Virus record (IMG/VR): IMGVR_UViG_3300043179_000057
Span: 1,601 to 65,600 of that record
Reading direction: 5' to 3' (one strand)
DNA: 64,000 nucleotides
From: a virus
Positions within the stretch are counted from its first letter, which is position 1. Each line of letters opens with the position of its first letter. The notes below the pieces were generated by a model. It ran no database searches. It was not told the origin of the DNA and worked only from the letters and a program-made list of their open reading frames with translations. Position numbers and translations under genes: made by a program. Positions 2-33,531 of the stretch are shown here, piece by piece.

Positions 2-1132
2 AACGAGCGGGAGACCCAGCGATGCGTCATGGAGGCGCCGGTCTTCGTGCTCTACCACGGCCGGCTGGCGGACGTGCCCACGGCCGAGGCGGTGGTGCGC
101 AAGGTGGCCGACGCCTGGACCCAGGAGCGGGGGCCTAGGAGCGTGGTGGTGGTGGCCACCGAGTTCGGCGAGCAGGTTCAGGCCATGTTCGCGGCCAACT
201 TCAGGCACCCCCGGACGGTGCGGCCCTTCCCCCTGGTCGCCCCCGGGGGGCTGGCCCAGAACGCCCAGCGGGCGTTCCTGGACGACCTGGCGGCGTTCGT
301 GGACGCCGAGGTGTACGACCCCCTCACCAAGCCCCTCGACCAGGCCGACCTGGAGGGCATGGGGGCCGAGGTGGTGGGGGAGAGGGAGGTCCCGGACGAC
401 CAGTCCGGGGAGGTCCGGCTGGCGCCGGTCTACCGGGCCCGGGTGAGGTCCTTCGAGGCCTCGCGGTTTCGGTCGAGCGTGATCGGGTTCGCGAACGAGG
501 ACGCCGTCGTCCTGCGGGTGGACGAGCTGAGGGCGGCCCTGCCCCAGGCGGCCAGCCGCTACGACGAGGAGTCCCTGCGCGAGCGGATGGCCAAGCTCTC
601 GTGCGGCATCGCGCGCCTGCGCATCTTCGGCCCGTCCAACGGCGAGACCAAGGAGAAGCGGGACCGGGCGGAGGACGCGGTGTGCGCCGTCCGGGGGGCC
701 CTCAAGCACGGGTGCCTGTACGGGGGCGGCTGGGCGCTGCTGCGGGCGTGCCGCGCCCTGGGGCCGTGCAGCGGACCGGTGGAGGACGTACTCAAGCCGG
801 CCCTGCTGGAGCCGGTCCGGAGGCTGCTGGAGAACGCCGGGTTCACCGACACCGAGCAGGTCCTGGACCCCGTCCTGAAGGCGCTGGAGTCCGACAGGCC
901 CGTCGTGTTCGACGCCATGCACGGGCGGCACGTGGATCCGCGGGAGGCCGGCCTGATGGACAGCCTGCCGGCGGTCCTGGAGGCGGTGCGCAGCTCCATC
1001 TCCATCGCCACCCTGCTCGGGACCCTGGGCGGCGCCGTGGTCTACGCCCGGGACAGGGAGCTGGAGCGCCGGGAGGCCTCCGACACGAGCCGGTTCATGA
1101 GGTCCGTGGCGGGCCAGGCGGAGGAGGGGTGA
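2..1132 (+). CDS. groEL: GroEL-like chaperonin, 5'-truncated by the window edge
   Basis: Frame is open from position 2. EKRDRAEDAVCAVRGALKHGCLYGGGWALLR matches the GroEL EKKxRVEDAL..GGG motif; GLMDSLPAVLEAVRSSISIATLL matches the C-terminal GIIDP.KV motif. Confidence 0.88.
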   Translation, partial: NERETQRCVMEAPVFVLYHGRLADVPTAEAVVRKVADAWTQERGPRSVVVVATEFGEQVQAMFAANFRHPRTVRPFPLVAPGGLAQNAQRAFLDDLAAFVDAEVYDPLTKPLDQADLEGMGAEVVGEREVPDDQSGEVRLAPVYRARVRSFEASRFRSSVIGFANEDAVVLRVDELRAALPQAASRYDEESLRERMAKLSCGIARLRIFGPSNGETKEKRDRAEDAVCAVRGALKHGCLYGGGWALLRACRALGPCSGPVEDVLKPALLEPVRRLLENAGFTDTEQVLDPVLKALESDRPVVFDAMHGRHVDPREAGLMDSLPAVLEAVRSSISIATLLGTLGGAVVYARDRELERREASDTSRFMRSVAGQAEEG

Positions 1133-1350
1133 GCGTCTTCGACCCCGTCAGGGGCCCGTGCGCGTGCTGCGGCCGGCGGCCGGCCACCGTGTGGTGGACC
1201 GGGTCGGAGGGGGTCGTGGCCGCGGTGCACGGCGGGGCCGCGCCCTGGTGCATGGTCTGCGCCCTGAAGGCCCGGCTCCGGTTCGCCCGCGAGGTGTCGG
1301 CTTCCATTCCCAGGCTGGAGGCGGAGCTGGCGAGGCTGGAGGCGAACTGA
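1129..1350 (+). CDS. Small Cys-rich hypothetical protein (CxCC...CxxC)
   Basis: GTG start overlaps the groEL TGA (GTGA); 73 aa. Confidence 0.6.
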   Translation: MSVFDPVRGPCACCGRRPATVWWTGSEGVVAAVHGGAAPWCMVCALKARLRFAREVSASIPRLEAELARLEAN

Positions 1351-20292: not shown

Positions 20293-20901
20293 ATGGGGCC
20301 CCGGAGGAAGCCGAGCCAGGACCGGGTCGGCTTCGCCGTGGAGCACGGGGTGGACGTCGAGGGGAGGGTGGTCTACCTGGTCGGGGACGTGGACGAGGCC
20401 GTCGTCGTCCGCTTCCTCGCCGCCCTGCACGTCCTGGACGCAGAGGAGAGCCCGGTGAGGGTGATCCTGTCCTCGGACGGGGGCGGGGTGGATGCCGGCA
20501 TGGCCATCTACGACGCCATCCGGACGACCAGGAGCCGGGTGACCGTGGACTGCTACGGGGCCTGCCAGTCCATAGCGGCGCTCATCCTGCAGGCGGCGGA
20601 CGTCCGCCGTGTGTCCCCGGAGTGCCGGCTCATGATCCACAACGGGTCCGTGAGGGTGGAGAACACGTCGGCCGACACCATGGAGTCGATCGGGCGCGAG
20701 GTCGCCCTGCTGAACCGGCGGTACTGGGAGATCCTGGCGAGGCGCAGCGGGCTCACGACCGACCGCATCAAAGAGATGTGCCAGGTGGAGACCTACCTCT
20801 CGGCCGCTGAGGCGGTGGAGGCGGGGCTGGCCGACGAGGTGATCAGGGCGTCTTCTGGTATGATGGGAAAGAGGACGAGGGGCAGGAGGTACAGAAAATG
20901 A
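20293..20901 (+). CDS. clpP: ClpP-family (S14) serine protease
   Basis: RVVYLVGDV, LSSDGG, AIYDAI, catalytic Ser in CQSIA, His in MIHN, TYLSAAEAVEAGLADEV. Confidence 0.88.
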   Translation: MGPRRKPSQDRVGFAVEHGVDVEGRVVYLVGDVDEAVVVRFLAALHVLDAEESPVRVILSSDGGGVDAGMAIYDAIRTTRSRVTVDCYGACQSIAALILQAADVRRVSPECRLMIHNGSVRVENTSADTMESIGREVALLNRRYWEILARRSGLTTDRIKEMCQVETYLSAAEAVEAGLADEVIRASSGMMGKRTRGRRYRK

Positions 20902-21491
20902 ACAGGAAGACGATCACGGCAATGGCGGTTGGCCTGGCGGCGGCCCTCCTGGTGGGATACGGGGCGGGCAGGTACGCGGCCCCGGTCAAGACCGTGGAGC
21001 GGGTCAAGGTCGAGGTGGTCGAGAAGCAGGTGGTGGTCACCCAGGTCAAGGTCGAGAAGGAGTACGTCGCGGTGGCCGACCGGAACGCCGACACGCGCGT
21101 CAACCGCGAGGTCGTCGAGGTAGTGAAGCCGGACGGCACCAAGACCACGACCACCAAGGAGACCACCGACACCAAGGAGACGTCCCGCGAGTCCGTGGCC
21201 TCGACCTCCACGACCACGTCCACGAAGGTGGAGGCCAAGGAGTCTACGAAGGTGGAGGAGAGGGCCGTCCGGGTCGCCCGCGGGCTGCCGACGTGGACCC
21301 TGGGGGTGGACGCTGGCGTGGTCCTGCCGGCCCTCGTAGGAGACTCCAGGCCGGCGCGGCTCGTCCCGGGCCTGCCGCGGTGGGCGGAGGTCGGGATCTC
21401 CCTGGACCGGCGCCTCTTCGGGCCGGTCAAAGCGGGGGTCCGGGTCGGCTCCATGGGCTCCGTAGGGGTGGCGCTCAAGGTGGAGTTCTAG
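20898..21491 (+). CDS. Envelope protein: N-terminal TM/signal, Thr/Lys-rich stalk, beta-rich C-terminus ending in Phe
   Basis: Hydrophobic residues 7-24; KTTTTKETTDTKE; alternating pattern VGVALKVEF-stop. Confidence 0.7.
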   Translation: MNRKTITAMAVGLAAALLVGYGAGRYAAPVKTVERVKVEVVEKQVVVTQVKVEKEYVAVADRNADTRVNREVVEVVKPDGTKTTTTKETTDTKETSRESVASTSTTTSTKVEAKESTKVEERAVRVARGLPTWTLGVDAGVVLPALVGDSRPARLVPGLPRWAEVGISLDRRLFGPVKAGVRVGSMGSVGVALKVEF

Positions 21492-22517
21492 GTGAGCCAG
21501 CCCGGGTCCCTCTGGGCCTCGGGCGGGGCCGGCGAGTTCGACTTCAGGATCGGACAGCCGGAGGCGGACTCGACCGTCTTCCTGGGGCAGCTCTCCCCTC
21601 CGCCGAGGGCGGCCATGGAGCGGTACCTGACCCCGGTCGGGGACCCAGAGCTGGTCGAGCTGCTGGAGGAGCGATACGGCCACGCCTACCGGGTGATCGT
21701 CACGGCCGGCGCTCACCAGGCCCTGGTGGCCTGCGTCCGCGCCATCTCGTCCTTCAAGGGCTACCCCTACATGGACTGCCAGCCGGTGTTCTACCCGGGC
21801 CTGCGGCACGTGGGTCTGGCTGCCGGGTGCGACCTCCGCCACCAGCCGGAGGACTACCCCGCCAAGCCCTCTCCCGGGGTCTCCGTGGCGGCGTGGCCCA
21901 ACAACCCGGACGGGATGTCCGGCGGCCTACCCGCCTTCGGCTGGGACGTCTGGGACGCCGTCTACGCCGACGAGGTGTACGGATGGGACGGGACCTCCCC
22001 CCAGCACCGGGTCCTGGTCGGCAGCGTGTCCAAGACCCACGGGCTGCCGGGGCTAAGGGTCGGGTGGGTCGCGTGCCGCAAGGAGGAGGACGAGCTGTAC
22101 CCCTACCTGGCCAGGCACGCGGAGGCCCTCACGGAGGGGGTCAGCGGCGTGACCCAGCACTACGCCAAGCAGGCGCTCCTGGCCGACGTGAGCGGCATGG
22201 GGAGGTGGACCTGGCGCACGTTCCTGCGAACCAGGCTGCTGGACAACGCCAACCTGTTCAAGGAGTCCGTCGGGTGGGTGACCGACCGAACGATGGGCGT
22301 CCCTCACGACGGAACCGGCATGTTCGCCTGGTTCCACGTCAAGGAGGTCTTCCGGTCAGAGTTCGAGGCCGCCCTGAAGGCCGCCGGGGTAACCCTGATG
22401 CCGGGAGGGGCGTGCGGGGCACCGGAGCCGGGCTGGTACCGGATGTCCATGTCCAGGCCCACGTCCGTCACCGAGCGGGCGCTGGCGCTCCTGGACCGGG
22501 AGCTTAGGGTCCGATGA
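21492..22517 (+). CDS. PLP-dependent aminotransferase, class I/II
   Basis: VTAGAHQAL, PNNPDG, WDAVYA, SVSKTHGLPGLRVGW (PLP lysine), YRMS. Confidence 0.85.
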   Translation: MSQPGSLWASGGAGEFDFRIGQPEADSTVFLGQLSPPPRAAMERYLTPVGDPELVELLEERYGHAYRVIVTAGAHQALVACVRAISSFKGYPYMDCQPVFYPGLRHVGLAAGCDLRHQPEDYPAKPSPGVSVAAWPNNPDGMSGGLPAFGWDVWDAVYADEVYGWDGTSPQHRVLVGSVSKTHGLPGLRVGWVACRKEEDELYPYLARHAEALTEGVSGVTQHYAKQALLADVSGMGRWTWRTFLRTRLLDNANLFKESVGWVTDRTMGVPHDGTGMFAWFHVKEVFRSEFEAALKAAGVTLMPGGACGAPEPGWYRMSMSRPTSVTERALALLDRELRVR

Positions 22518-22764: not shown

Positions 22765-23448
22765 ATGAAAAAGCTGTTCGTCTTGGGGCTGTTCGTGTTT
22801 TTGATGAGCTGCGCTAGCATGAGGCCGGCGCCGACCGAGGAGGCCCAGGAGGGCCTGAACCACGCGGTCAAGCTGGAGGTGCGGGTCGCCTCCATGGAGG
22901 CCGGCAAGACGGTCGTCCACCACGGGACGGGGACGGGAACGGTGGTGGCGAAGGCGAAGAACGGCAGCGCTCTGATCCTCACCGCCGCCCACGTGTGCAG
23001 GCCGCAGGGGGCCGTGGCCTACGTGCTCCAGGCGGTCGAGCGGTCCGAGGAGACGGTCCCCGCCACCGTGCTGAACTACAGCTACAAGCACGACCTGTGC
23101 CTGGTGAGCGCCCCCCTGACCGTGGTGCGCCCGGCGGACGTCGCCAGGTACGTGCCTCCGGTCGGCGCCAAGGTGCACTACGCCGACGGCCTGCTCTACG
23201 GCCCCGCCCTCGTCGCGGTGCGTGACGGTAGGTACGCCGGGGACACCACCTACGGAGACGACAACGACAGAGACTTCACCGTCCTGACGACGCAGGCGCA
23301 CGGCGGGGACAGCGGGGCGGGGGTCTACTACCACGGGCGGCTCTTCGCGGTGGTCCTTGGAGGCCTCAGCGCGAGGGGCGAGACGTCCGGGGCCAGGGTC
23401 ACTCTCTGTGCCACCATGCGGCAGATACGCAGCTTCCTGGAGGAGTAG
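22765..23448 (+). CDS. Trypsin-like (S1) serine protease, predicted lipoprotein
   Basis: MKKLFVLGLFVFLMS-C lipobox; triad motifs LTAAH, HDLCLV, GGDSGAG. Confidence 0.85.
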   Translation: MKKLFVLGLFVFLMSCASMRPAPTEEAQEGLNHAVKLEVRVASMEAGKTVVHHGTGTGTVVAKAKNGSALILTAAHVCRPQGAVAYVLQAVERSEETVPATVLNYSYKHDLCLVSAPLTVVRPADVARYVPPVGAKVHYADGLLYGPALVAVRDGRYAGDTTYGDDNDRDFTVLTTQAHGGDSGAGVYYHGRLFAVVLGGLSARGETSGARVTLCATMRQIRSFLEE

Positions 23449-26549: not shown

Positions 26550-27094
26550 GGCTGGAGGAGGCGCCGCCGTGGTGCGGGGTCCTGGTGGGCCTGGCGCCCT
26601 CCCGGTCCTCTGACCCGGCCGTCCCCGTCCTAGGCGGACGCTCCGGGAGGTTCCTGGCTGAGCTGGCCGGCGTCCCCACCCACGCCCTGGCGTTCCTGTT
26701 CGTTCGGGTCAACCTCCTCGGACGCCTGCCGGAGCGGGTGGCGCGCGGGGACCTCGTGGGGCCTGCCTGGGGGGTCGTCAGCGCGCTCGGCGGCCGCAGG
26801 GCCGTGCTCCTGGGCAGGGACGTGGCCGGGGCCTGCGGGGCGCGGGTGCGCGGCCTGGGCTCCGCCCCCTGGCTGGAGTGGAGGCCGCTCCCGAGCGGGA
26901 GCGGGGCGGTGATGCCCCACCCGTCCGGGCGCAACCGGTGGTGGAACTCCCAGGACAACCGGGCCGCCGCCCGGGCCTTCCTCCGCGAGGAGATGACGCG
27001 CATCGCCAGGAAGGCGATGGAGGACATCCCGGACGGAGTCGTGCTACAATCGATCCAGAGGATCGCCGAGGGAGACTTCGACCGCGGTTCATAA
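26546..27094 (+). CDS. Uracil-DNA glycosylase-like superfamily protein
   Basis: LVGLAP motif A, RVNLL, VLLGRDVA, MPHPSGRNRWWN motif B. Confidence 0.7.
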   Translation: MRLEEAPPWCGVLVGLAPSRSSDPAVPVLGGRSGRFLAELAGVPTHALAFLFVRVNLLGRLPERVARGDLVGPAWGVVSALGGRRAVLLGRDVAGACGARVRGLGSAPWLEWRPLPSGSGAVMPHPSGRNRWWNSQDNRAAARAFLREEMTRIARKAMEDIPDGVVLQSIQRIAEGDFDRGS

Positions 27095-27108: not shown

Positions 27109-27396
27109 ATGAACAAGCACCTGACGACGGCGTGGCGCTACCTGAGGATAGGGATCGTGCTGGGGTTCGAGGTCTTCATGATCGTGGGGGCGGTGGCGGC
27201 GGCGTGCGCCGCCGCCGTGGCCATAGCCCTTTCGGGGCAGATGATGCCCGCGTACAAGCTGGTCGGCGTCGCCGCCGCCGTGGCGGTGTACGCCGCCTGC
27301 ATGGCCGGCCGGCGGGTCTCCCGGGAGGCCGTTCTGAATATCGTTCTTACGGACGAGGAGCTTGCGGAGGCGACCAAGCACCCCAAGAAGTGGTAA
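27109..27396 (+). CDS. Two-TM membrane protein
   Basis: Two hydrophobic segments, basic C-terminus, RBS GGAGG. Confidence 0.65.
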   Translation: MNKHLTTAWRYLRIGIVLGFEVFMIVGAVAAACAAAVAIALSGQMMPAYKLVGVAAAVAVYAACMAGRRVSREAVLNIVLTDEELAEATKHPKKW

Positions 27397-31642: not shown

Positions 31643-32143
31643 CTACCACTGGTACCTGTCGAAGATCCTCCACACCGACGACATGCCGCCCTTACGGTAT
31701 GCGTCAAGGAGGGCCGGCCACCCGAGGCCGTGCCTCTTGAGGGGTAGCTGGACGTGGGGGGCGTCCGGGAAGGACGCCCAGCGCAGGCCGGCCTCCAGGC
31801 CCAGGGCCGCCGCCTCGACGGCGAGGACCTCGTAGCTGGCCTTGTCGTAGTCGGGCTGGAGCCCCGGCTTGGCCAGGTCCTTGTCGTGGCACAGGTCGCA
31901 CGCCACCCCGTACTGGTGGGCGCTGTAGCCGCCCCGCGCCTTGGTCACGATGTCGCGCGACATGTCCGTGCGGCCGTACGAGTAGAGCTTGTCCTGCTCC
32001 TCGACCGTGCGCAGGCCGTTGGTGGCGTAGTACCTCCACCCGTTGACCTCGCAGCGGTCCGCCAGCGCCGCCAGCTTGACCGCGAAGGGCGGGTAGAGGA
32101 GTCGGGTGTTGATCCGGCCGAGAAGCTCGACGTGGGTCAGCAT
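31643..32143 (-). CDS. M15-family peptidoglycan peptidase (endolysin)
   Basis: GLRTVEEQDKLY, SAHQYGVACD, DAPHVQL. Confidence 0.88.
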   Translation of the reverse strand: MLTHVELLGRINTRLLYPPFAVKLAALADRCEVNGWRYYATNGLRTVEEQDKLYSYGRTDMSRDIVTKARGGYSAHQYGVACDLCHDKDLAKPGLQPDYDKASYEVLAVEAAALGLEAGLRWASFPDAPHVQLPLKRHGLGWPALLDAYRKGGMSSVWRIFDRYQW

Positions 32144-32148
32144 TTACC

Positions 32149-33531
32149 TTACGCTCCCACCGACCCGGGCGTCCCGTCGGCCCCGTCGGCCCCGTCCGCG
32201 CCGTAGTTCTCGATGTGGCGGTCCTGGTTGACGTGAACGATGATGCCTCCGCCCCCCTTGCGACCGCGGCGTCCCGCGCCGCCTCCGCCTCCGGCGCTGT
32301 TCTGCGCGGGATTGCTGCTGTCACCCCCATCACCGCCGTCGCCGCCGTCACCCCCATCACCGCCGTCGGCCTCGATGATGCCGGAGCCCTGAAGAAGGCT
32401 TCCGTAGATCAGGAAGATGGCCCCGGCGCCCCCGCCAGCGCCTCCAGAGCCCCCGCCGCCTCCGCCTCCTCCGCCCTGGTTCTCCACGCCGACCGTGGAG
32501 ACGCCCGGACCGCCGTCGCCGCCGTCGCCGCCAGCTCCGCCGTTGCCGCCGTTCGCGCGGATGACGCCGCCCCCGGAGATGTCGATGACCTTGGCGCACA
32601 GCCACACGAGGCCGCCGCTGCCGCCCGCGCCGCCGCCTCCGCCACCAGCTCCGCCGGTCGTCCGAGACCCGATCGGCGCGTTGCTGCTACCGCCGCCACC
32701 ACCGCCTCCCGCGCCACCACCACCGGCCAGGCCGCCACAAATGCGCTTCCATGCGGCGGTGGCCCCACCTGAGATGGAGCATGCCGAGGTTGCGGTAAGA
32801 TAGTGGGTGGCGGGCAGGAAGCTGCCCACCGCCCAGGTGACGGCCGACCCGACCGAGGCGTCGCTGCCGTTGCTGCCGGTGTCGCCGTCGTCTGCCTCGG
32901 ATGTGCCGGCCGCTCCGGCCGCTCCGCCTGTCGCCCCGCTGCCTGTGCCGCTGCCCGTGCCGCTGCCTCCGCCCGTCCCGCCGGCTCCGCCGGCTCGGCC
33001 AGCGTTGGAACCTACGATGCCGCCACCACCACCGCCGCCACCACCGCCTCCGGCACCGCCACCACCGCCACCGGCCTGGTGGCCAAGGGAGGTGGACGTG
33101 GAGCCGCCGTTGGAGCCGGCGCCGCCGTTGGCCGACGCCGTTCCTCCGTTGCCGCCCGCACCGCCGGCAGCCCCGGCAGCTCCATCGATAAATCCTGAGC
33201 CAGGCGAGCTGCCTGCGGTGCCTGCGGTGCCGCCCGTGGGGGCCGCCGGGGGCGGATCGTCGTTGTCGCCGTCGCCGCCGTCGCCGCCAGCTCCGCCGTT
33301 GCCGCCGCTGCGCGTGATAACGCACGACGAGTTGGCTAGGGTGATGTTCTCGGCGAACATCCGGTACCCGCCCGTGTTGAGGATCTGGGCTCCGGTGCCG
33401 TCCAGAACGACCTCGCCGTAGCTCTTGTCGCTCGCCAGCGTTACGCTGGTCGCCCCCGTCAGCGTGAGGTCGCCGTCGGTAGGCTCGGGGTTGAAGAACT
33501 CTATGTAGCCGGTGCCGCGAAATCCAGCCAT
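32149..33531 (-). CDS. Glycine-rich (PGRS-like) fibre protein
   Basis: GGxGGxGG repeats throughout; a 41-bp exact repeat at 32511 and 33267. Confidence 0.75.
   Translation of the reverse strand: MAGFRGTGYIEFFNPEPTDGDLTLTGATSVTLASDKSYGEVVLDGTGAQILNTGGYRMFAENITLANSSCVITRSGGNGGAGGDGGDGDNDDPPPAAPTGGTAGTAGSSPGSGFIDGAAGAAGGAGGNGGTASANGGAGSNGGSTSTSLGHQAGGGGGGAGGGGGGGGGGGIVGSNAGRAGGAGGTGGGSGTGSGTGSGATGGAAGAAGTSEADDGDTGSNGSDASVGSAVTWAVGSFLPATHYLTATSACSISGGATAAWKRICGGLAGGGGAGGGGGGGSSNAPIGSRTTGGAGGGGGGAGGSGGLVWLCAKVIDISGGGVIRANGGNGGAGGDGGDGGPGVSTVGVENQGGGGGGGGGSGGAGGGAGAIFLIYGSLLQGSGIIEADGGDGGDGGDGGDGGDSSNPAQNSAGGGGGAGRRGRKGGGGIIVHVNQDRHIENYGADGADGADGTPGSVGA

Follow-up and report, generated by a model that had tools for sequence, protein, structure and literature searches.

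How can a phage open the outer membrane of a Gram-negative host when its genome encodes no recognisable spanin? This is an open question for about one in eight phages infecting such hosts (~13%; Kongari et al. 2018, PMC6139136), and the gene studied here, P0001, provides a concrete candidate with which it can be tested. P0001 lies in a stretch of 64,000 nucleotides, which we call the window and which covers positions 1,601 to 65,600 of the IMG/VR virus record IMGVR_UViG_3300043179_000057 (81,240 bp, rated ~49% complete). A preliminary description of the window, made from the sequence alone, had read the gene product as a possible new type of spanin, with a membrane anchor, an extended stalk and a C-terminal signal for insertion into the outer membrane. 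Here, we found that the protein belongs to a large viral family and that its members share a hydrophobic N-terminal helix, a long beta-hairpin with matched arms and a C-terminal module of four strands of the outer-membrane-barrel type. A spanin-like role is the reading that we tentatively place first; an oligomeric outer-membrane barrel and, after it, a ring anchored in the inner membrane rank close behind.

The open reading frame is a real gene that is translationally coupled to both of its neighbours. The fraction of guanine and cytosine (GC) at its third codon positions is 0.95, compared with 0.69 for the region, its start overlaps the stop codon of a ClpP-like protease gene (ATGA), and an aminotransferase-like gene begins 1 nt past its own stop. 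Searching 1.84 billion representatives with phmmer returned 375 relatives at E<=1e-3, of which 100 reached E<=1e-10; almost all are 170-220 residues long and align from end to end. A word-indexed profile search added 28 sequences. Unless another number is given, the anatomy described below was checked over 151-171 family representatives. The nearest clusters in the ESM Atlas are 91-97% viral, and no member was detected when 185,579 bacterial genomes were scanned with a pattern. Five related virus genomes (128-182 kb), of which two are complete with terminal repeats, carry exactly one copy each, and the genomes with members span 46-69% GC.

The only cultured carrier is the Myxococcus phage Mx1 (record OR576727.2, 169,621 bp), which infects the Gram-negative and genetically manipulable M. 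xanthus. Its family member, P0126 (WNM70284.1), is annotated merely as a hypothetical protein, and our literature search found no functional work on it. Scans of P0001 against Pfam and PHROGs gave noise or nothing, 119 family members had no Pfam family in common, and a profile search found no relative among the sequences of the PDB. A lead from the ESM Atlas toward DUF6808 was rejected, as its hidden Markov model (HMM) matched neither the 81-kb record (E<=10) nor the 119 members. When 50,697 phage records were searched with tblastn, P0001 and P0032 as queries found no match and only P0004 reached Mx1. The family is large, almost purely viral and unnamed, and it is carried by large Mx1-like phages. 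With 375 clusters, a single copy in the five related genomes, the same genomic place in most of the sampled lineages and a member in a cultured phage, it is open to experimental tests.

The central part of the protein was described initially as an extended stalk rich in V, E, K and T. This composition indeed holds over the family (V 16.5%, T 16.3%, K 12.7%, E 12.3%), but instead of forming a straight spacer, the stalk folds back on itself at the turn P78-D79-G80-T81, as a hairpin. Mean-field coevolution analysis resolved a continuous antiparallel ladder at i+j=158, comprising the pairs 77-81, 76-82, 69-89, 65-95, 55-101, 36-122 and 30-128, and the ladder was reproduced with a second aligner on 171 sequences. 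All 119 sequences of alignment A2 have G80 at the turn, and D79 is kept in >90%. The hairpin is bounded by the conserved prolines P29 and P131, which leaves ~48 residues per arm in P0001. Over the family, the arms measured from P29 to the D-G turn and from there to P131 range from 39 to 64 residues, and in 87 of 93 members the two arms of one protein are equal in length to within 2 residues (Spearman 0.93). For the Mx1 member, AlphaFold2 placed strands 30-73 and 79-122 in one hairpin with a mean predicted local distance difference test (pLDDT) score of 85.8, and neither this model nor that of P0001 contains a helix between residues 28 and 132.

Based on the coevolution ladder, the matched arm lengths and the AlphaFold2 model of the Mx1 member, we conclude that the stalk is a single two-stranded beta-hairpin. 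Its length would be roughly 14-16 nm if the beta structure is regular, at 3.3 A per residue, and its tip carries polar residues (T/K/E/D) and lacks a hydrophobic belt. In the folded hairpin, the N-terminal helix and the C-terminal strand module are brought to the same end. A bridge between two membranes would thus be possible only in a state that has not yet zipped.

The preliminary description counted four or five amphipathic strands at the C-terminus; four are borne out by AlphaFold2, which places them at residues 133-141, 163-174, 177-184 and 189-195, and a fifth is not. Their two faces differ strongly. Of the residues on face X (21 positions), 86% are aliphatic or aromatic, while face Y (18 positions) consists of 27% Gly, 25% S/T/N/Q and 25% charged residues and bears a conserved Trp, packed against a Gly that is conserved as well. 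The end of the chain is equally constrained. Over 171 members the last residue is F in 114, W in 33 and L in 18, so that 86% of the chains end in F or W, and 97% when L is counted; positions -1, -3, -5, -7 and -9 are hydrophobic in 97%, 90%, 97%, 93% and 75%, compared with <=12% at the even positions from -2 to -8 and 40% at -10. The terminal aromatic residue together with hydrophobic residues at -3, -5, -7 and -9 is the pattern of a C-terminal beta-signal for the beta-barrel assembly machinery (BAM), so that the signal initially read from the ending VALKVEF is well supported by the family.

The coevolution data further indicate how the strands are arranged. The registers of neighbouring strands lie at 304 (b1-b2), 350 (b2-b3) and 372 (b3-b4), and an additional antidiagonal near 328 couples b1 with b4. 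In these registers, the four strands are consistent in the residues that they turn to either face. On this antidiagonal, the pair 134-194 ranks 4 of 18,721 pairs, followed by 140-187 (rank 34), 134-196 (53), 132-196 (78) and 136-192 (180), all within the top 1%. A positive charge is found at position 134 in 50 members and at position 194 in 50, and in none at both; on the family tree, this charge swap changes at least 25-29 times. Since strands 1 and 4 are the free edges of a four-strand meander, their coupling implies that copies join edge to edge, either in a closed oligomeric barrel or in a continuous sheet. Taken together, these patterns support the view that the module behaves as a piece of an oligomeric membrane beta-barrel, with its hydrophobic face outside and its Gly, polar and charged residues inside. 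The conserved glycines and the aromatic-on-glycine pair would also suit the interior of a narrow membrane barrel better than a face exposed to solvent.

At the other end of the chain, the transmembrane segment noted initially is a hydrophobic helix that is conserved across the family. AlphaFold2 modelled residues 3-27 of P0001 as a helix (pLDDT 91-93), and positions 6-19 are hydrophobic in 53-99% of the members, with a K/R pair ahead of them. The helix is hydrophobic on every side, with no amphipathic period, and is the sole hydrophobic helix of a protein whose C-terminus consists of beta-strands. The family columns end the hydrophobic stretch with G-G-[FY]-[AG]-x-G-R-[YFW]-x-x-P, and in P0001 G20-x-x-x-G24 forms a helix-packing motif. 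Long N-terminal tails present in some members, which had been considered as evidence for an anchor, were dropped because they may be over-extended gene calls.

The anatomy described here, with its features listed in the table, is conserved across the family far beyond chance expectation. The combination of a helix, a hairpin with matched arms and a four-strand barrel piece is a predicted build for which there is no described counterpart. Whatever its function, it would represent either a novel kind of relation between a single small protein and the two membranes or a minimal, virus-encoded outer-membrane protein of the autotransporter type.

Table. Features of the P0001 locus, in coordinates of the window, with the evidence used for each.
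Feature	Position	Strand	Evidence
P0001, 197 residues + stop	20898..21491	+	Open reading frame, third-position GC, family matches
Hydrophobic helix with K/R flanks, residues 3-27, ending G20-x-x-x-G24-R25-Y26, then P29	20904..20978	+	AlphaFold2, column statistics
Ascending Val-rich hairpin arm, residues 30-77	20985..21128	+	Coevolution ladder, matched arm lengths, AlphaFold2 of the Mx1 member
P-D-G-T turn, residues 78-81	21129..21140	+	Alignment columns
Descending Thr/Asp/Glu/Lys-rich hairpin arm, residues 82-130	21141..21287	+	Coevolution, arm lengths, AlphaFold2 of the Mx1 member
Outer-membrane-barrel-type module, residues 131-197: P131-x-W133 and four amphipathic strands (133-143, 163-174, 177-184, 189-197) ending VALKVEF	21288..21488	+	AlphaFold2 (pLDDT 88-96), coevolution registers, face statistics
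Shine-Dalgarno sequence AGGAGG, 8 nt 5' of the P0001 ATG	20884..20889	+	Sequence reading
ClpP-like serine protease gene, likely ATG start at 20293, frame open from 20167	20293..20901	+	Pfam CLP_protease (E 3e-31), alignment, synteny
Aminotransferase-like gene	21492..22517	+	Pfam Aminotran_1_2 (E 1e-18), synteny
Endolysin gene, the only recognisable one in the window, amid tail-fibre genes	31643..32143	-	PHROG endolysin families (E 3e-18)

What could such a protein do? Its Sec-type N-terminus, its hairpin stalk and a barrel module that closes on itself with a hydrophobic outside are well supported; that the protein is exported, and which membranes it involves, we infer. We tentatively propose that it is a one-chain, lipid-free tether between the inner and the outer membrane which acts like a spanin by zipping of its hairpin, with a polarity reverse to that of the u-spanin T1 gp11. 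In this scenario, the N-terminal helix would stay in the inner membrane, while the strand module would be carried to the BAM machinery and inserted in the outer membrane as an oligomeric barrel. The still-open stalk, which with two arms of at least 39 residues should exceed the width of the periplasm when fully extended, would thread the cell wall and tie both membranes together. Once the endolysin has removed the wall, the stalk could zip from its tip into the hairpin, pull the outer membrane onto the inner one and rupture or fuse the outer membrane. That zipping would draw the membranes together follows from the folded state, in which helix and barrel lie at the same end.

We rank this spanin-like reading first since it uses all conserved parts of the protein (among them the matched arms, the basal prolines and the aromatic end), since the gene is single-copy and behaves like a core gene and not like a variable accessory one, and since the clade shows no other spanin. 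The original assignment has the conserved architecture, the barrel-like module, the Gram-negative host and the lack of an Rz-type spanin in the five related genomes on its side; it lacks a location in a lysis cassette, and helix and barrel module lie side by side when folded. The more specific claim, that the family constitutes a single-chain, lipoprotein-free spanin which works by zipping of a ~15-nm hairpin and serves as the core lysis gene of a clade of 130-180-kb phages without known spanins, is more doubtful than the tether as such. If this more specific claim is true, the family would be a bacterial-virus counterpart of hairpin-forming viral fusion proteins.

The closest functional parallel is offered by T1 gp11. 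Both are small single chains with a membrane element at each end, from phages of Gram-negative hosts, and both have a beta-rich predicted periplasmic part without cysteine; P0001 is free of Cys altogether, as are 120 of 151 family members. For u-spanins, a 'collapsing beta-sheet' model has been proposed (Kongari et al. 2018, PMC6139136), and the action proposed here for P0001 likewise has a collapse of beta-structure draw the membranes together. The polarity, however, is reversed, with the helix of P0001 N-terminal and its outer-membrane element C-terminal. T1 gp11 is held in the outer membrane by a lipoylated Cys, whereas P0001 would be held there by a strand module with a terminal aromatic residue, and P0001 has neither a C-terminal transmembrane helix nor an N-terminal lipobox with Cys. 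It also lies outside a lysis cassette, has no PHROG match and shows no sequence similarity that we could see. An o-spanin role for an outer-membrane protein has been considered before (Kongari et al., PMC6139136); we found no description of a protein that fills it, though no literature search was dedicated to this point.

Lambda Rz likewise begins with a helix that is followed by two periplasmic arms with a hinge, and the Rz/Rz1 complex is thought to fold back. In contrast, the arms of P0001 are beta instead of coiled coil and contain no cysteines, and no embedded, overlapping or adjacent open reading frame with a lipobox was found in the other frames of the gene or in its neighbours. TamB/AsmA proteins also combine an N-terminal inner-membrane anchor and a beta-rich body with C-terminal strands that engage an outer-membrane barrel. 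They are, however, cellular proteins of >1000 residues with a lipid-carrying groove, and we found no sequence relation between them and P0001.

Several observations weigh against a spanin role. Overlapping or abutting starts and stops, together with the absence of a terminator-like site on the plus strand ahead of 24427, make the gene part of one long plus-strand operon. This operon holds replication genes (polymerase, RecA-like, primase, DnaB, ClpP-like) and looks early or middle, a position that argues against a classical late lysis gene. In the window, 10 kb separate the gene from the endolysin, the two are on opposite strands, and no holin or endolysin adjoins P0001. A cytoplasmic-type ClpP-like protease, which a spanin does not need, is instead its steady partner. 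As to the protein, the hairpin is the coevolved ground state, and the chain might simply fold immediately, next to the inner membrane. A sign test on independent pairs for the 134/194 charge swap lacked power, as the number of supported pairs was too small. An initial impression that couplings link the helix end to the strand module more often than expected did not hold (7 of the top 60 pairs versus 4.7 expected), and no fold match reached significance. Finally, the N-terminal segment resembles a cleavable signal peptide as much as an anchor, with 12-14 hydrophobic residues, small residues at -3/-1 and Gly at -5/-6 relative to the putative cleavage site, and its cleavage would leave the protein with no inner-membrane anchor. 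As regards the operon, large phages such as T4 are known to scatter their lysis genes (PMC6139136).

Is the N-terminal segment an anchor or a signal peptide? Its uncharged stretch is 19-20 residues long in 65 of 104 members, a length that does not discriminate between the two, since classical signal peptides of the OmpA type have ~18. At the putative cleavage site, 93% of the family have Gly and 3% have Ala at position -1, and position +1 is Arg in ~90%, with an aromatic residue next to it. The sites of signal peptidase vary among Ala, Gly and Ser, and a positive charge early in the mature chain hinders export through Sec. From these columns and the G20-x-x-x-G24 motif, we lean slightly toward a helix that is kept uncleaved in the mature protein, while the segment could equally be a cleaved signal peptide.

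With a cleaved signal peptide, the mature protein of 173 residues would be a small oligomeric outer-membrane barrel assembled by BAM from at least three copies of four strands each, as in trimeric autotransporters. Its hairpin would either stay in the periplasm or pass outward through the barrel as a 15-nm surface fibre, for superinfection exclusion, receptor masking or adhesion. We consider this possible, with a likelihood just short of that of the spanin-like tether. It draws on the same coevolution, face statistics and beta-signal, on the signal-peptide-like length and c-region with A/G-x-G at -3/-1 and Gly at -5/-6, and on co-expression with replication genes, which would suit exclusion. 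The anchors of YadA, Hia and AtaA likewise provide four C-terminal strands per chain that need further copies for closure of the barrel, a terminal aromatic residue and a Gly-rich inner face.

Fold comparisons stayed below significance, and their weak matches bear on the barrel module in either reading. The weak matches of the P0001 model are fragments of barrels and four-strand anchors (EspP on BAM, a TamAB hybrid barrel, Hia, AtaA, OprF, PagL and designed membrane barrels), among them Hia 2gr8 with E 1.5 and a root-mean-square deviation (rmsd) of 4.3 A over 75 columns and AtaA with Z 3.5. A library of viral folds returned two uncharacterised phage proteins at E 9e-7 and 7e-4, and phage proteins of the YadA-like anchor or 'agglutinating adhesin' kind at E 0.2-0.6. 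However, the Pfam HMM YadA_anchor matches neither P0001 nor any of the 119 members, and the helix that fills the pore ahead of strand 1 in autotransporter anchors is lacking. The passenger would be a hairpin of 100 residues and not a coiled-coil fibre, and the N-terminal segment may stay uncleaved; the near-fixed Gly and Arg around the putative cleavage site also speak against processing there. Exclusion genes are usually variable accessory genes, in contrast to this single-copy gene with conserved synteny across genomes of 46-69% GC.

A different picture emerges if the helix is retained and the hairpin is folded, which brings helix and strand module together. The modules could then form a periplasmic ring anchored in the inner membrane, with no part in the outer membrane and with the hairpins as a needle or bundled into a beta-barrel tube, which would serve as a conduit, a spacer or a device contacting the wall. 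The best Foldseek rows for the model of the Mx1 member are pore-state toxins and ring proteins with long hairpins: aerolysin in its pore state (6e-3), epsilon toxin, lysenin, anthrax protective antigen and the flagellar LP ring, with E from 6e-3 to 0.1. Aerolysin, lysenin and protective antigen possess a very long, Thr-rich, two-stranded hairpin as stem, which becomes a tube by oligomerisation, and the arm length of 39-64 residues lies within or above the range of such toxin stems. Yet the template modelling scores (TM-scores) of these rows are 0.09-0.20 and the rmsd is >12 A throughout and >20 A in nearly all, so that the likeness is limited to the shared long hairpin. Unlike the toxins, P0001 has no toxin head domain and no hydrophobic belt at its polar tip, and its own N-terminus targets it to the membrane. 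Such a ring would leave the conserved aromatic residue at the end of the chain without a function, and we know of no home at the inner membrane for a barrel that is hydrophobic on its outside. We place this possibility slightly below the outer-membrane barrel.

The Foldseek rows of the Mx1 model also include long-hairpin parts of phage tails (Andhra upper tail, P68, phi29 knob). This raises the question of whether the protein is soluble or a component of the virion, with the helix packed on the wholly hydrophobic face of the sheet, which a helix could cover, or with two sheets forming a soluble eight-strand barrel and the hairpin acting as a fibre. This is very improbable, as the helix is hydrophobic all round and preceded by the K/R motif, five conserved glycines and the conserved Trp would face solvent, and the gene lies far from the structural modules.

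The steady presence of the ClpP-like protease deserves separate consideration. Among 12 lineages with visible upstream DNA, its gene lies directly upstream of the family member or one small gene away in eight, with stop and start often overlapping (carriers: the window, L002/3/6, L004, L005, Mx1, L011, L013, L023 and L024). It is absent upstream in L014, L015, L017/L020 and L021/L022. The alignment shows that the protease keeps the Ser, the His and the acidic residue and carries no export signal. We therefore weighed whether P0001 works together with the protease or is cleaved by it, or whether it assists morphogenesis at the membrane in a way similar to T4 gp40, with a mostly cytoplasmic chain. 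The T4 gp40 gene sits amid helicase and recombinase genes, and charges on both flanks of the helix of P0001 leave its orientation unsettled. Against this stand the four lineages without the protease, an export signal in P0001 and none in the protease, an N-terminal tail of only ~4-6 residues on the near side, and a Thr-rich, Cys-free chain with an outer-membrane-protein-like end that is atypical of cytoplasmic proteins. In addition, the head module of Mx1 contains an annotated prohead protease of its own. We judge a role of this kind unlikely. For the same two reasons, the separate prohead protease of Mx1 and the export signal, a scheme with the ClpP-like gene as head-maturation protease and P0001 as its scaffold was rejected. 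It is nevertheless a curiosity of these phages that the short ClpP-like gene is fixed between DnaB and the family member in most of them, although Mx1 has that other protease.

The wider context of the gene is shared with Mx1, with which the window is colinear. Both have the order GroEL, SbcC-like nuclease, ribonucleotide reductase, DnaE-type polymerase, RecA/UvsX-like protein, primase, DnaB, ClpP-like protease and P0001 or its homologue, and in both the other strand carries endolysin, kelch protein and Baseplate-J genes after this region. In Mx1, the endolysin is 2.4 kb away from the homologue and convergent with it. The aminotransferase-like neighbour recurs in L012 and L024, which have very different GC. 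In L014, the family member is separated from a LamG-type fibre gene by three tightly packed genes for small membrane proteins (66, 58 and 75 residues; 573-1161, plus strand), an arrangement that looks like a lysis cassette and is a single case.

Concerning other spanins, no classical Rz/Rz1 pair had been seen in the window initially, and this agrees with our crude lipobox and transmembrane scan, which found no such pair in the 81-kb record or in Mx1. Pfam Phage_lysis (PF03245) is absent from all five related genomes. Both are weak negatives given the diversity of spanins. PHROGs assigned no lysis family to the small membrane genes of L014, to the neighbours in Mx1 or to a 95-residue protein with two hydrophobic helices, which is encoded at 27109-27396 (plus strand) of the window, matches no family and is a holin candidate by its size. 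The promoter-like site at 27021-27050, the sole one in 15 kb, precedes the gene of this protein.

The lipobox scans returned as lipoproteins a trypsin-like protease, a Zn-protease-like protein and one unassigned protein. The trypsin-like peptidase (22765-23448, plus strand) has a lipoprotein-type start (MKKLFVLGLFVFLMSC...) and is a phage envelope protease two genes 3' of P0001. Past the end of the window, at 65888-66967 of G000 (minus strand; L026 1889-2968), two adjoining predicted lipoproteins are encoded, one with the zinc-protease motif HELGH and neither similar to an o-spanin. Mx1 encodes at 124730-125817 (minus strand; L018 24730-25817) a lipoprotein of 291 residues with an SPFH/band-7-like start, beside a membrane protein of 65 residues with two helices; both are annotated as hypothetical. 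In the window, the endolysin is embedded amid tail-fibre-like genes (31643-33531, minus strand) and is preceded by a protein of 460 residues made mostly of Gly/Ala/Ser runs. The first 4 kb of the window, which hold the GroEL and SbcC-like nuclease genes, have 74% GC and a host-like composition, yet they are phage DNA, colinear with Mx1.

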